Part shown: positions 39,001 to 45,000 of the stretch, piece by piece | Layout: every line of letters begins with the position of its first letter | How positions within the stretch are numbered: the stretch's first letter is position 1 | From: Candidatus Obscuribacterales bacterium | GTDB lineage: Bacteria > Cyanobacteriota > Vampirovibrionia > Obscuribacterales > Obscuribacteraceae | Reading direction: 5' to 3' | Length of the DNA stretch: 64,000 nucleotides | NCBI GenBank assembly: GCA_965228855.1 | Contig: CBDDIJ010000003.1 | Location: 832,001 to 896,000 of the forward strand | Made by a program: the position numbers

Positions 39001-42000
39001 AGCGTAAGAACAAAAACGCCTTCGAAAGGAGGGGCGAATGCATCATATTCTTTGTTCGCTCGGAATAAGAAACGCTCGGCAATTACGTGAAATGCGACAG
39101 CCAAAGCTGACAAGATCGTAAATGCTGCGAGAAAAATAACTGGTGTTTTCAGCAAACACACTGAGGTTGCGAAAAATATCGCGATAATTGAAAGGTACAG
39201 TGACGGCTCTTTGAAAATAGTTTGCTTGCCGCCTTCGTAGCCACTGATCTTGATTTCCGTGATTTCTAGATTCTCTGATGCTTCAGACGGGGTGTCAGGC
39301 TCTGATGGCTTGTCTATTGTGGTGGTCATTGAATATCCTCCAAATCGGAGTGAGAAACGAGGGCGCGAGTATGCCAACGCTCGATCATTTTGAGATCGGG
39401 CAAAAGCCGCACTTAGAGCTAATCTCTAAGCGTCAAATTTGAGGTGGGTGTTTGCATTATGAGTCCTGGAGGCATGTCTCGCAAGTCCGCCGCTGCGAGC
39501 CTAGTCGTATAACCCGCATGGCCAGAGAGGTTTTGCGAAGTCTATTCGCGCCTTGACGCGTGATTACACGATGGGCGTCGTCGTGTAATCACTACTGATC
39601 GAACGTTGTTTGAATCGGACCGGAAGCGTTACGGATTTCTTGAACATGAGCACAAAATCATAAGTCGTTCAATGCCGCTGTGAACTGGCAATCGGGCTTA
39701 ACAGATCACATACCCCACACAATTTATTGATAAAGGAACGCGATCCTCTTTAATACTGCTACGCAGTTTGGTAGTATGTCGAACCTCTGCTGGTTGGTGT
39801 TTTCGCAGATTAATATGTTGCAGTCTTCTAAAGCTTATACGCGTAGCAACTATCAACAGTCCGATCGGGTCGACTCTTCAAAACGGTCGGACCTGAAGCT
39901 CATGAGTTTGATTGTTGCCGTTGGCTGTTTGATGTTTTTACCGGGGCTGGGCGCGACCGGGATTTTGAACACCACCGATGCTTACTATGCGGAAGCTGCG
40001 CGGGAGATGTTGAATCGTGGCGATTTCATCACGCCCTATTTAAACTACCAGCCGTATTATTTCAAACCGATTTTGACCTACTGGGTGATAATCGCATCCT
40101 ACCTCACGTTTGGCATAAACACCTTCGCTTCGCGTCTGCCATCGGCCCTCTCCTGCATTGCAACCTCGCTTGCAATTTTCTCTCTGACCAAAGCTTTCAT
40201 TGGACGCAGAGCCGCTTTGATGGCAGCTCTTGCTCTGCTGTCTATGCCCTTAGTATCCGTGGTTGGTCATGTTTCAATTCCGGATACACCGCTACTTCTT
40301 CTCACGACGGTTTCCAGCTTGCTCTTGCTCGGCGCCCTCATACGTGGCGACAGCAAGGGTTTGATTCCAGCTTACGCATGCCTGGGTCTGGCAATGTTGA
40401 GCAAAGGACCGCTGGCGCTCGCGTTTGTTGGTGCGTGCGTGGGCGGCTTTCTCCTCGTAAGCAGCCGGTCCCTCGATCATTTTAAGCAGAGACTTCTGTC
40501 TCTTAAACCGATTCTCGCCGTTGCGGTATCGCTTCTGGTGGCACTTCCCTGGTTTGCCGCCGTGCATTTGTCATCTAACGGAGCTTTCACGCAATTCTTT
40601 TTCATTCAGCAAAACTTTGGGCGACTGTCCGGGCAGTTTCAATCGCACAATAATCCGGCATGGTTTTACATTCCCTATCTGGCTGGTGGCTTTCTGCCAT
40701 GGCTTCCAATGCTGCTCAGTGCGCCAGTAATTCTCCGCCCTCGATTCGAGAAGCGTCTGTCGGACAGCCCGCGAGTACAAATGACCGTAGCGTCGCTGTG
40801 CTGGTTGTTTGGAACGCTCGGGTTATTGCTTGTCTCGTCCTCGAAAGTCGCCCACTATTTGCTTCCAATCGCCTCTCCAATCGCAATTTTGAGCGGATTG
40901 TATTTTGACGCTGTTCTAAAACTCGGCCGACGCCGATTTGTTCTGTGGGTGGCACCGGTTATGGTGCTTGCTTGTGTCGGTAGCCTTTTCGCGTTCCCTC
41001 GCCTATTTGAAAACGAGGGGCAGTTGCAAACCCTCGCTTCAGTTTTTGTTTCTCTGCTCATAGTCGGCTACACCGCATATGGTGCGTTTATCTACAAATC
41101 TCAAATGCGGCTTGGCGTGGCTCTTTTGTTTGCCTGGAGTTTGCTCGACTGTGGATTGTTGGTGCCGGTTGCGATTCAGCAGACCTACCGCCGTGCTAAC
41201 GAAGAGTTTGTTTCTCTCGTAAAGCAAGCCAGTAAGGACAAGAATTCAGTAATTGCCGTTCGCGCGAATGACAGCGCTACCGCCGCTTTCTATGCGGGCA
41301 AGAAGATTTACGAGATTGAAGGACCGTTAGATTGCAAGAAAATTGTGGACACCACCCAGGGACCGCACTACTTTATTTTTGATGATAAGACGAATTCTCT
41401 TTTGCATCCATTTATCCCGGGGTCTCCTCGTGTAATCAGTACGGATGGTAAATGGAACTTGATCCTCGTTGAAAACGACTCAGCATCAACTTCTTCAAAC
41501 TGACCCCTTCTCTTTGTTTTGGTTTCGTGTTTACCTTTCGTTGACAAAGGCGAGTTTCGCTCAGATACTGAGAATATGAACAAAGCAGCACATCGCAACT
41601 CGTCTTCCTCGTCCCCATAGGACGCGGGAGTTTGTTCATCTAATTGTGTTATTGAACAAAGAAGCCCGCTTTAACCGAAAGCGAGGCTTTTTGCATTGTA
41701 GTGCCTCGCGTATCATTGGAGGTACTATGATTGATTTGGAAGAAGTAAAACGACAGCAAGCTAATTATCGAAAGGCGATTCTCAGCAAGCGAATTCCGCT
41801 CGATTTCGACACTCTTTTGCGGGTCGCAGAGGAGCGGAGGACCGCTCGCCGAGTCGTCGATGATCTCAGGCGGGAACGCAACAAGATCACTGCTCTGGTG
41901 GCAGCTGGAACTGCGCGCGCAGAGAACATCGAGAAAGGTCGTGCTGTCGGTGAAAAGCTAAAGGCGGAGGAAGCGCAACTGTTTGAATTGGAAAAAAGCT

Positions 42001-45000
42001 ATCGCAAATTAGCGGCGCTCTTGCCTGGAATTCCGGCTCCGGAGGTTCCAGAGGGTGAAACAGATGCGGATAACGTAGAAGTCAGAAAGCACGGAATACC
42101 AAGAGTCTTTGATTTCGAGTTTCGAGATCATCTGGAGCTGACCGCGTTGCATAAGATGGCAAACTTCGGTGGTGCCAGAGAAATTGCGGGTTCAAGAGCG
42201 TATGCGCTGATGGGAATTGGAGCGTTGCTTGAAAATGCCGTTCTGCAGTTTGCTCTGACCCACATTGTGAAGAAGGGCTTCACTGCGGTTCTTCCGCCGT
42301 TGTTGGTGAACGAAACCGCAATGTTCGGTACAGGATATTTTCCTCTCGGAGAGGACAGTGCCTATCATCTCGAAAAGGACAATCTATTTTTGACCGGCAC
42401 CTCAGAGGTCGGCGCTGTCGCGATACATGCGAATGAAACCGTCAATCAAGTCGATTTTCCACTGAGGTATGTTGGAATTTCGCCGTGTTTTCGCCGCGAG
42501 GCAGGTGCAGCAGGACGAGACACCAAGGGCTTTTATAGAGTGCATCAGTTTCAAAAAGTGGAGCAGGTTGTCTTTTGTTCAAATGATCCTGAAGTATCAC
42601 GTGTGGAGCATGATGCGCTTCTGCAAAACGCCGAGGAGATTGTGCAAGCTCTTGAGCTTCCCTATCGCGTGGTGGCAGTTTGCACAGGTGACATGGGGCT
42701 TGGTCAAGTGCGCAAGCATGACATCGAAACATGGATGCCCAGCCGAAATAGCTACGGCGAAACGCATTCATGTTCAACCTTCCATGACTTTCAGGCTCGT
42801 CGTTTGAACATTCACTATCGCGATGCCGATGGTAAGAAACACTTCGTGCATACGTTGAACAATACCGCTATCGCCTCACCTCGGATTTTGATAGCTCTCC
42901 TTGAGAATCATCAAAACAAAGATGGGACCATCAATGTGCCGAAAGCGCTCCGACCATATCTGGGTGGGACGGAATTGATGGAGCCCTAGTGTATGACGCG
43001 CCGATAACAATCAAGGGTGCTGAGGTTTGGGCTGTGATCCGCAGGGGCGCGAATGCGCGCCGACGGTCACGGCAGGGGGCAGCTACTGCATAAGCGAACC
43101 CAGGAACGTTAGAAAAAGCAAACCGCCACCAATGACGATGGCAACCCAATTCATCACAGAGAACTTGGAGTTGGGTTCGCCTTCACTCGTTGTCGTTGCC
43201 ACGCGGTTAATCAATTGAATTGCAGGAAGCAGAGCGATGAAGGCAAACGTTGAAAGGTGGGAAATCGGCTCCGGTGCTTTCCAGGTGAGAGTGACGATGA
43301 TCCAAGCGGCAGCCAGCATTCCAGCAGGCATAGTATTTATGACACCTCTGTCGTTTGCTACTTGTCTGATTTCTTTCAACAGTTCGTATATAAAAACGTA
43401 CGCAAAGAATGCTCTCCAGAAGGAATGTAATTTGCGACCTGTTCGTTCGCTGATAAGCTGCCAGTTTTTGTACTGCCAAAAAAGTTCGTAAAGTCCAAAT
43501 GTGCACATGGACATCACAATAAATTTCAATGGCGAGACACTGAAGAACAAACGTCCATTATATAGTTGAGGTTCAAGCGTGCCCTCCTCTCTCGATGATT
43601 GGCTTGTTTTGAGCTTTTCGCTAACCTTTTGTTCTTGCTCGTTGTCCATGGTGGTGCCTGCTGATTTGATTTGCGTTTGGGACATTATATAAGTGTGCGC
43701 TGAAAGAGAATGTTTGATGTTCGTGCTCGTGAATGTTTTCTTCCTCATATATAGCCATGTCTCGGTGCCATGTTCCGACGAGCCGCCTGACCACGCATCG
43801 CCGAGAGCTGATATATAAGGAACACACTTGGCGTGTCGCTAGTAAGTTTTCTGAGCGTAAGTCTATTTCATTGAATGAACGCTGAAGGATGTGACCAGAT
43901 GTGCACCTTCGCGATCGGCGTGTGATCGGAACAAAAAACAAGCCTGGTAATGAAAAATGACATTCCTATTCGCCGATCGAGTAATTGCGTTAGAACGCTG
44001 GAAATTCCCAGTGGGTAAGGCTTTTGCCGCGCTTGTTGGATTCTCGCGCAATTAATATTGCTTGCTGGGATCCTTCAGAATCCGAGTACTTTAGAGGTCA
44101 AGATATATGCTGTTGCCAATTGTAAACGAGAAATTTTTCAGAACCAATTTTGATAAATCCAACAAGGGCTCAGAACAAATAGACGAAAGTTTTTTTGAAA
44201 AGGCAATTTGAATCCTTCGCTTGACGACCGGTGGTAGGAAACGGTTTAACAGCGTGTTATGTTTTGCAGCGAATTAGACGGCGGTATTCTCGAGATTCCG
44301 CCGCCCAAAAACCTTTTGATTAGCTCCCGGCGACGGGAGCCTGATTTGTATTGGCGTACTAGTCGCCGAAATCGAAGTGACACCTTAGAGGATTGAAAAT
44401 GAGTAAGAAAGTGGTGCGAAGTCGGGAATCCTACATCAAAAACTGGACCGCAGCTATCTGGGGATCGGTGATGGTCGTAGCGTCTGGAGCCGCAGCTCAA
44501 GCCGAAGACCATCAAAACTTCAGAGATTTCCGCGATGCGAATCCCGGTTTCGATCGTCATACGCTTCGTCAGATGTATCGCGCTGAGTTTGGTCGTGGTG
44601 GCGCAGGTGGTGCTTCAAACGTTCCTGACGCCGGCACCTTTAACATCATGCCGGTACCGAATGTACCTTCGACCAGTAACGTCACAATCACAGAGTCGCG
44701 CGGCAAGTGGGCTAACCGTCTCGAACGCAATAATGGCGTCATAAAGCAATCCGTTCAATCTAATGACAGCGGCAAGCTGGTGACACTGAATGGCGGCGTC
44801 AATCTCGACCTCACGTCACAAGCACGCAATATCACCCTCGGACAGAAGCTGTTCAGTGGTGTTTCATCAATTGAAATTCAAGTTGGCGGCGAAACCAAAA
44901 CTCTCACTGCTGGTTCACAAGTCACGGCAGCCGAGTATATCGCTGCAAAACAAGTTCTCGCAGGAACCGCTCAGAAAGTTGCAATCAGCTCTAACGGCGT

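Follow-up and report, generated by a model that had tools for sequence, protein, structure and literature searches.

A serine-codon leader before a second seryl-tRNA synthetase gene in Candidatus Obscuribacterales, and its threonine counterpart: predicted ribosome-mediated attenuators of spare synthetases

The genome of Candidatus Obscuribacterales bacterium has two seryl-tRNA synthetase (SerRS) and two threonyl-tRNA synthetase (ThrRS) genes. The second SerRS gene lies in the window considered here, a stretch of 64,000 nucleotides of contig CBDDIJ010000003.1 (C3). Next to it lie genes for an ArnT-like transferase and for a small membrane protein. Window positions 41576-41620 correspond to C3:873576-873620. 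The features are given below in window positions. Hairpins are predictions from folding, with energies in kcal/mol and z scores.

41541..41569, plus strand: sigma-70-type promoter, TTGACA-17-GATACT, 10 of 12 consensus matches
41576..41620, plus strand: Ser leader ORF of 14 codons, MNKAAHRNSSSSSP
41600..41614, plus strand: five putative regulatory Ser codons, TCG TCT TCC TCG TCC (codons 9-13)
41604..41630, plus strand: hairpin 1:2 (protector), Ser codons paired with GGACG-C-GGGAG past the stop
41624..41669, plus strand: hairpin 2:3 (antiterminator), GCGGG paired with the CCCGC in the 5' arm of the terminator (-17.9, z -2.7)
41659..41692, plus strand: hairpin 3:4 and U-tract (intrinsic terminator; -17.1, z -4.25)
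41681..41709, plus strand: hairpin 4:5 (anti-sequestrator), GCGAGGC in the released 3' arm of the terminator paired with GCCTCGC (-14.1, z -3.4)
41698..41728, plus strand: hairpin 5:6, sequestering the Shine-Dalgarno (SD) GGAGG (41718-41722) together with the beginning of the AUG (-15.1, z -4.5)
41727..42989, plus strand: second seryl-tRNA synthetase gene (serS2, 420 aa, intact; TIGR00414 at 427 bits against a cut-off of 302)

The leader ATG sits 7 nt past the promoter. We place the transcription start at or beside its A, which would make the mRNA leaderless. Hairpin 1:2 reaches -15.4 kcal/mol in a 60-nt piece with a z of just -1.5, and relatives carry compensatory versions of it (CATCT/AGATG and CGTCTTC/GAAGACG). 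The entire leader has a z of -5.25. The protector, antiterminator and terminator are predicted to be mutually exclusive. A 194-nt contig from a sequencing run that is merely guessed to be RNA spans 41516-41710; it begins 5' of the predicted start and is given no weight.

The spare ThrRS gene, thrS2, is also intact (637 aa, above the NCBIfam cut-off for thrS), and has its own leader.

C3:2639751-2639837: Thr leader ORF of 28 codons with TETTTT, from ORF reading

The predicted terminator behind it is bulged (-13.8 kcal/mol in ViennaRNA) and was missed by a simple scanner. The housekeeping thrS of this genome has no Thr leader. The housekeeping serS has no such leader either; one 39-codon ORF upstream of it holds SSNS. 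A genome-wide scan for a promoter, a short ORF and a hairpin with T-run (a stricter version missed both leaders) gave 79 candidate rows, and the Ser and Thr leaders are the only ones with five identical residues in six codons. Of the 56 sites at which a candidate leader accompanies a terminator and a gene, none belongs to either housekeeping gene. None of four loci examined (L001, L034, L013, L041) matches an Rfam family, the T-box RF00230 included, at E<=1. A relaxed ARAGORN search with introns gave noise alone. The genome-wide survey's note had described two such leaders, each followed by a terminator, before spare genes, with nothing similar before the housekeeping genes and no Rfam family at either locus. 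All of this holds.

The leaders are conserved in relatives, as was also claimed. A Ser-rich leader precedes 41 of the 43 distinct loci of the spare SerRS clade in Obscuribacterales, and the Ser run is absent from two members. It must be noted that these loci are not independent events, since all stem from one acquisition. TTGAC lies 34-36 nt 5' of the leader ATG in 34/35 Ser leaders (one judged by eye) and 9/10 Thr leaders. The first Ser is at codon 9-13 in all 35, and the remaining peptide varies freely. TCN accounts for 179 of 182 Ser codons in the clusters versus 66% genome-wide, a bias that descent and 1:2 pairing alone can explain. Housekeeping serS loci of relatives show merely an SSS run, in 2 of 12. 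A Ser-rich ORF 5' of a Bacillota serS (L105) is within a T-box and was taken as chance. A Thr-rich leader with 3-6 Thr codons is found at 10/10 spare thrS loci, one of them weak. The earlier view that the ThrRS case is confined to two genera has to be widened: these loci span four genera, and Thr-run leaders stand before the same ThrRS type in other phyla too. Housekeeping-type thrS loci gave one weak match, at -315, among 21, of which about five had unreliable starts or scant upstream DNA.

The partner of the terminator 5' arm lies 6-19 nt past the last Ser codon. With the ribosome stalled and the 3' arm not yet made, the 5' arm is captured upstream with a median probability of 0.86 (above 0.5 in 35/35 Ser leaders, and above 90% of shuffles in 28/35), although shuffled spacers quite often capture this GC-rich arm as well (median 0.59). 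Once the ribosome sits at the stop, the median is 0.04 (below 0.5 in 34/35), and here masking up to the stop strips the arm's partners by construction. The Thr leaders give 0.67-1.00 when stalled versus 0.04-0.58 at the stop. When the full leader is folded at equilibrium with a stalled ribosome, the terminator still prevails in 30/35 Ser leaders, including this one (0.91). Folding at equilibrium, with the footprint of the ribosome masked, did not reproduce the switch (5/35), which speaks against a thermodynamic one. Since the terminator wins at equilibrium, the switch must be kinetic, by co-transcriptional trapping. The folds do contain an antiterminator that cannot coexist with the terminator and becomes available upon stalling at the control codons, but at equilibrium it loses to the terminator in those 30/35.

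We argue that ribosome-mediated attenuators sensing charged tRNA control the spare SerRS and ThrRS, and we hold this with high confidence; the leader amino acid matches the downstream enzyme each time. The sequence, its conservation, the base complementarity and the trees are direct observations, and from them we infer where transcription starts, that the leader is translated, that ribosomes stall on it and transcription terminates, in what kinetic order the RNA folds and what the physiological trigger is. The mRNA would start at the leader AUG. When seryl-tRNA is plentiful the ribosome would reach the stop and cover segment 2, or depart so that 1:2 forms. With segment 2 occupied the terminator 3:4 would form and transcription would end before serS2, and any read-through mRNA would have its ribosome-binding site (RBS) shut in 5:6. 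When seryl-tRNA is scarce the ribosome would stall on the UCN run and leave segment 2 free. Segment 2 could then pair with the emerging terminator 5' arm (2:3), so that transcription continues. The freed terminator 3' arm would pair with segment 5 (4:5) and open the SD. The thrS2 leader would follow the same scheme with Thr codons and without the second lock. The spare enzymes are thus very probably switched on by their leaders when charged tRNA runs short. Anatomy, conservation and folding support this proposal of the survey's note well; it did not mention the predicted leaderless start or a further lock at the level of translation. Its interpretation as a whole is partly supported.

The survey's note called the spare enzymes duplicated paralogs. 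SerRS2 is about 40% identical to the housekeeping SerRS, and the signature columns of the alignment mark it as a foreign type with ETHS and NNT. The spare SerRS (support 99 and 98) and ThrRS (99) clades fall among other phyla's enzymes, and a long branch separates them from the class's own housekeeping enzymes. These trees were made with quick methods and FastTree and were midpoint-rooted, from 77 and 79 SerRS rows and 70 ThrRS rows; these subsets had been thinned of near-duplicates and of roughly half the distant rows. The grouping with other phyla does not support duplication of the host synthetases, and both spare enzymes are best described as foreign-type xenologs. SerRS2 belongs to what is an ordinary housekeeping type in distant genomes, because it is the only SerRS found in 4/5 of them. 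The NCPNAM motif was in all matches of one search, which is a biased result since the motif itself was the search pattern. As a positive control, the T-box RF00230 was found on the same SerRS type in 6/7 Bacillota loci scanned. The comparison with T-box leaders, already drawn in the survey's note, is therefore apt. We suggest that these horizontally acquired, ordinary-looking enzymes would serve as an inducible back-up when housekeeping charging falls short.

Another purpose, compatible with the same mechanism, would be resistance. The spare enzymes might resist the albomycin warhead, borrelidin or obafluorin, and the leaders would then sense antibiotics in the manner of Streptomyces trpRS1. 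There is a precedent in the auxiliary antibiotic-resistant TrpRS under ribosome-mediated attenuation (cited in PMC4787780). Between SerRS2 and the housekeeping type there are 28 columns with fixed differences, several within catalytic motifs, and the distribution is patchy (44/104 family genomes). Relative to E. coli, H337 is replaced by A and A513 by V in ThrRS2, and two of the nine copies read show Q in place of L489. However, the ThrRS2 of this genome keeps the sensitive residue at all six borrelidin positions, three of which were mapped by offset: E. coli H309 and L489, and human H391, F539, Q566 and L567, the four sites altered in the borrelidin producer's ThrRS (PMC4389257). The hint of inhibitor resistance in the survey's note is not supported by these residues. 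A type that serves distant genomes as their only SerRS found is not what resistance would lead one to expect, there are no resistance or biosynthetic genes among the neighbours, and in this genome biosynthetic operons are under the same device, with His codons before hisG and Leu codons before leuA. An antibiotic-resistance role is unsupported and, in our view, rather unlikely; we prefer the inducible back-up.

The lock at the RBS deserves separate consideration. A 4:5 helix of at least 6 bp is present in 32/35 Ser leaders and exceeds 95% of shuffles in 29/35, and segment 5 overlaps the SD-pairing stretch by at least 3 nt in 28/35. The 4:5 and 5:SD helices covary between two types: GCGAGGC/GCCTCGC with CCTC/GAGG, and GGCTCGC/GCGGGCC with CCTTGC/GCAAGG. 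From sequence, then, most Ser leaders appear to hold a second, translational lock made of terminator 3' arm, anti-SD and SD, which is new here. One can imagine that attenuation is mainly translational, with the cascade acting on the RBS (5:6 versus 4:5) and termination weak or secondary. The compensatory changes fit this, as does a U-tract of only five U in the Ser leader here, and mycobacterial leaderless poly-Cys ORFs work on a downstream RBS (10.1101/834739). Against this, a hairpin and U-rich tract follow all 35 Ser and all 10 Thr leaders, and the 4:5 helix is missing from three Ser leaders (L016-L018) and from 7/7 Thr leaders computed (of 10). The SD opening is also modest in many folds. 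Of the 34 Ser leaders computed, just 13 gain over 0.3 in SD accessibility on passing to the ON fold, and this one goes from 0.07 to 0.24. A mainly translational device is unlikely, and we keep to transcriptional attenuation with a second lock in most Ser leaders.

It is very improbable that the Ser run is a by-product of RNA structure, a pyrimidine-rich 1:2 strand bound by protein or tRNA with the ORF no translated sensor: the near-exclusive use of TCN and the pairing of these codons in 1:2 fit that idea, but the Ser codons are in frame with an ATG at the predicted +1 in 35/35, their third positions range over all four TCN codons, and Thr codons before thrS2, His before hisG and Leu before leuA replace them. 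The RVPH/TVPQ tail of the genus's Thr leaders could be cited in its favour, since what is conserved in it is the nucleotide sequence (GTGCCGCA), owing to pairing with the 3' arm of the terminator; we rejected this tail as a functional peptide motif and prefer RNA pairing.

The classical mechanism of leader-peptide attenuation is well described (PMC1183508), and pheST is a synthetase operon under it (PMC1262725). Our leaders resemble E. coli pheM-pheST, trpL, hisL, thrL and leuL in having a short ORF, a cognate codon run, the 1:2/2:3/3:4 alternatives and a U-tract, and pheM-pheST also in controlling an aminoacyl-tRNA synthetase (PMC1262725). Unlike these, the Ser leader has serine specificity, a predicted leaderless start and the extra 4:5 / 5:SD lock, and unlike pheM it would control a second, foreign-type enzyme rather than the sole one. 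Streptomyces thrL-thrS, alaL-alaS, leuL2-leuS and trpL2-trpS are leaderless leader ORFs before synthetase genes (PMC8079986). The Thr half thus has a published counterpart, because a Streptomyces Thr leader precedes thrS; that thrL carries two Thr and lacks a clear U-tract (PMC8079986), in contrast to the 3-6 Thr and the terminator of the leaders here. A serS leader is absent from the Streptomyces set, and the paper's main text nowhere uses the word 'serS' (PMC8079986). A serine leader-peptide attenuator before serS was not found in the literature searched. Streptomyces coelicolor trpRS1 (Vecchione and Sello 2010) is likewise a spare, divergent synthetase under ribosome-mediated transcriptional attenuation, but that enzyme is shown to be inhibitor-resistant, a property unsupported for SerRS2 and ThrRS2. 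In T-box synthetase leaders, and in the T-box/leader-peptide swaps of hisS paralogs, uncharged tRNA also raises enzyme synthesis (PMC2965389); the T-box senses by tRNA binding, whereas the Ser and Thr leaders would sense by the ribosome. The mycobacterial poly-Cys ORFs share the homopolymeric codon run and stalling that governs an RBS-sequestering structure, but that model has cysteine and no intrinsic terminator (10.1101/834739), while the Ser leader would chain a terminator to an RBS lock. Anabaena thrS2, in the same phylum, is a second, stress-induced ThrRS; it is under the Zur repressor, responds to low zinc and has impaired editing (PMC4787780), whereas ThrRS2 here has a Thr leader and retains its zinc ligands and editing motifs.

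Interest is limited by a textbook mechanism and by the published counterparts of the Thr half; the Ser version is what the literature searched does not show. Serine is missing among the leader-peptide attenuators described there, a gap that a conserved and covarying Ser attenuator would fill. With it one could read seryl-tRNA charging directly in vivo and test whether UCN are the serine-sensitive codons, as reported in B. subtilis (PMC3862929). It would also mean that one SerRS type moved between phyla and was re-wired from T-box to ribosome sensing. A wider scenario, which we offer as speculation and think improbable, is an Obscuribacterales back-up panel (Ser, Thr, Asp/Asn) of acquired synthetases, each under a leaderless ribosome-read attenuator, with the Ser one chaining terminator and RBS lock in a five-step hairpin cascade. 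Its purpose might be to survive natural synthetase inhibitors or tRNA-directed toxins; the Ser leader would hence be a ready-made biosensor that reports when seryl-tRNA is depleted, and SerRS2 would represent a class of inhibitor-insensitive enzymes not described before.

Leaders of the same build occur in this genome for His, Leu, Phe, Met/Cys and Asn/Asp, which suggests that these non-photosynthetic cyanobacterial relatives employ classical attenuation widely. An apparent Ile leader 5' of hisG is actually the His leader in another frame. No rho gene was found in the genome. Of 82 terminators at gene ends, just 9 are found 12 nt or less from the stop, a crude sign that transcription does not outrun the ribosomes.

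The serine- and threonine-rich leaders before the spare genes serS2 and thrS2 are real and, judged by three testable features, very likely classical leader-peptide attenuators. The genome-wide survey's note had placed leaders before both genes, and re-reading the ORFs agrees with it. Both genes are intact. Their products (420 aa behind the Ser leader, 637 aa behind the Thr leader) are about 40% and 37% identical to the other genomic copies, and each exceeds its NCBIfam cut-off (serS or thrS). A scan of the whole 8.2-Mb host genome gave 79 candidate rows, and only these two leaders have five identical residues in six codons. 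No comparable leader precedes the housekeeping serS and thrS of this genome, as the note had also said.

Features of the two leaders and their surroundings (window positions unless a contig is named)
39776-41503, ArnT-like glycosyltransferase, immediately 5' of the Ser-leader promoter
41576-41620, Ser leader ORF, reads MNKAAHRNSSSSSP
41604-41630, helix 1:2 (protector), from folding of the window sequence
41624-41669, helix 2:3 (antiterminator), -17.9 kcal/mol
41659-41692, helix 3:4 (intrinsic terminator) with five U, -17.1 kcal/mol
41681-41709, helix 4:5 (anti-sequestrator), -14.1 kcal/mol
41698-41728, helix 5:6 across the Shine-Dalgarno (SD), -15.1 kcal/mol
44393-53515, 3040-aa repeat-rich ORF, secreted or adhesin-like, 3' of serS2
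C3:2639751-2639837, Thr leader ORF, reads MHIDFPSFKTETTTTRVPHASGLVIKRY

The Ser leader promoter (TTGACA-17-GATACT) ends only 6 nt ahead of the leader ATG, which predicts a leaderless mRNA. The promoter of the Thr leader (TTGACG-16-GATAAT) has the same spacing to its ATG. Over the Ser leader the window sequence can form five helices that overlap one another. In the OFF state helix 1:2 or a ribosome would be combined with 3:4 and 5:6, and the ON state would consist of 2:3 and 4:5.

The leader is conserved with the spare enzyme. A search of 61 genomes gave 18 spare-type and 12 housekeeping SerRS loci. A run of at least three Ser is found in 16 of the 18, and the remaining two have four Ser within five or six codons; two of the 12 housekeeping loci have SSS and nothing more. 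Among the best 80 loci from all species 27 have the leader, all within one SerRS clade. Of the other 53, five have a Ser-rich ORF of some kind, its position differing from locus to locus, and two lack upstream DNA. Deduplication left 35 distinct Ser leaders. TTGAC lies 34-36 nt upstream of the ATG in 34 of them (a script located 33, inspection the other one), all 35 have their first Ser at codon 9-13, and TCN makes up 179 of 182 Ser-cluster codons, versus 66% genome-wide. A family-wide search found the spare SerRS in 44 of 104 genomes and added 12 serS2 loci (six new leaders, four duplicates, two exceptions), which brings the Ser-rich leader to 41 of 43 distinct spare-serS loci. The exceptions, L233 (genome G107) and L235 (G103), are from relatives that keep housekeeping serS. 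They share a different, conserved 54-codon ORF ending in NSRRCGGLTSSRVS about 460-530 nt upstream of serS2, with a repeat-rich spacer between, and this region is possibly a replaced or decayed regulator.

The Thr-rich leader is present at 10 of 10 thrS2 loci from four genera (one weak, cut by a contig end). A single weak match, at -315, occurs among 21 housekeeping-type thrS loci, about five of which had unreliable starts. Thr-run ORFs also precede the same ThrRS type at about 8 of 73 other loci, from other phyla. Four of these loci have a separate terminator (L158, L179, L176, L161), and in another four a small GC hairpin sits at the ORF's stop (L165, L203, L206, L208).

Equilibrium folding of the Ser leaders gives no switch: when a ribosome footprint is masked over the second Ser codon, no more than 5 of 35 leaders drop to a terminator probability under 0.5, and the host Ser leader stays at 0.91. 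The outcome is different when the transcript is folded as of just before synthesis of the terminator 3' arm. The 5' arm is then paired upstream with a median probability of 0.86 under a stalled ribosome (>0.5 in 35/35), 0.04 once the ribosome has reached the stop (<0.5 in 34/35) and 0.40 if no ribosome is present. For shuffled spacers the value is 0.59; of the real leaders, 28 of 35 score above 90% or more of their 40 shuffles. Thr leaders give 0.67-1.00 stalled versus 0.04-0.58 at the stop. Since the terminator persists at equilibrium while the earlier folds capture its 5' arm, only a kinetic switch is plausible. Attenuators in general are regarded as kinetic switches. Six of ten Thr leaders lack the terminator in the ribosome-free fold, because GTGCCGCA behind the Thr run pairs with the terminator 3' arm (five of the six). 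This is the "conserved tail" of the note; it is indeed conserved, but as RNA that pairs with that arm. A scarcity of gene-end terminators close to stop codons is a crude sign of transcription-translation coupling; in the host genome only 9 of 82 lie at most 12 nt from the stop, and a rho gene was not found there.

The Ser leaders have a second lock, on the ribosome-binding site. Helix 4:5 has at least 6 bp in 32 of 35; in 29 it exceeds 95% of shuffles, and in 28 there is an overlap with the SD-pairing stretch. All three lock partners vary jointly between two sequence types in the alignment. The effect in folds is uneven, with a gain in SD accessibility above 0.3 in 13 of the 34 leaders computed. 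The 4:5 lock is absent from the 7 Thr leaders computed.

The three features uphold the note's attenuator reading. Its description of the enzymes as duplicated does not hold. In trees (quick methods, midpoint-rooted, subsets of sequences) the leader-bearing SerRS form a single clade (support 99 and 98) amid enzymes of Bacillota, Planctomycetota, Peribacteria and others, distant from the class's own SerRS, so the Ser leaders count as one origin. ThrRS2 is placed likewise (support 99). The simplest reading of these sequences would be horizontal gain; the alternative, ancient paralogs, requires many losses. The SerRS2 type has fixed differences from the housekeeping type at 28 columns. In 4 of 5 distant genomes no other SerRS was found, and a T-box precedes this type at 6 of 7 Bacillota loci. 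At L149, a Thermomicrobium record, visual inspection picks out a T-box-like motif ahead of an enzyme of the ThrRS2 type, below the Rfam gathering score.

Leaders of like build precede other genes in the host genome.

Other leaders in the host genome
C3:1552602-1552700 (L225), His leader with six His, before hisG
C3:~3640840, + strand, Leu leader with five Leu in six codons, before leuA (named by sequence reading)
C5:~327630, - strand, FWFFAF leader, before a DAHP-synthase-like gene (named by sequence reading)
C2:1924127 (L226), - strand, Met, Cys-Cys leader, before cystathionine gamma-synthase
C2:~1628380 (L224), - strand, NNNNNDAD leader (Asn5-Asp), before a second, non-discriminating AspRS

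The Leu and Met leaders look leaderless too. Given this range of genes, attenuation is a general device of the host, not confined to inhibitor targets. For the spare enzymes we prefer a role as general back-up. That they serve inhibitor resistance, as the note had hinted, we think unlikely. Its borrelidin example is disfavoured, since ThrRS2 has the sensitive residue at all four sites altered in the producer's enzyme (PMC4389257). ThrRS2 also retains zinc ligands, editing motifs, H309 and L489, and lacks an N-terminal stretch of housekeeping ThrRS.

A Thr leader before thrS2 is of a kind already published; PMC8079986 describes a leaderless thrL-thrS and further aaRS leaders in Streptomyces. 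Also consulted were PMC1262725, PMC2965389, PMC9437257, PMC4787780, PMC3862929, PMC9032320, PMC8323819, PMC7916415, PMC1183508, PMC4052509, PMC10817482 and 10.1101/834739. The literature searched (comparative attenuator surveys, most subscription papers and supplements lay outside it) contained neither a leader-peptide attenuator for serine nor any account of attenuation in the Obscuribacterales lineage. What sets the Ser case apart is the combination of a predicted leaderless mRNA with a chained lock on the ribosome-binding site, before a foreign enzyme.

Not every spare pair is attenuated by a leader peptide. No Tyr-run leader precedes either TyrRS gene (C2:318832, L227; C5:905567, L228). 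A second GlnRS (C4:35594-37393, L230), whose N-terminus is rich in lysine and glutamate, lies on the 182-kb contig C4 and possibly stems from contamination or from a mobile element. The leader scan also flagged a gene at C2:584983 (-), presumably LanC-like, which follows a strong terminator and a short ORF of tandem repeats; this locus is probably unrelated to attenuation.

About 21 tRNA genes form a dense array on one strand at C3:724518-727973, which we take to resemble the cryptic cyanobacterial tRNA arrays, and five more cluster at C3:1529761-1530653. The spare synthetases could be charging tRNAs from these groups. Neither ARAGORN nor blastn with other Ser tRNAs found tRNA-Ser(UGA), although TCA codons are common in the genome; the assembly is 95% complete and may have missed the gene. 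A tRNA-Sec is called at C5:146551. Finally, L031:11856-12995 (-) encodes the C-terminal part of a DnaB helicase with an apparent intein-like insert.
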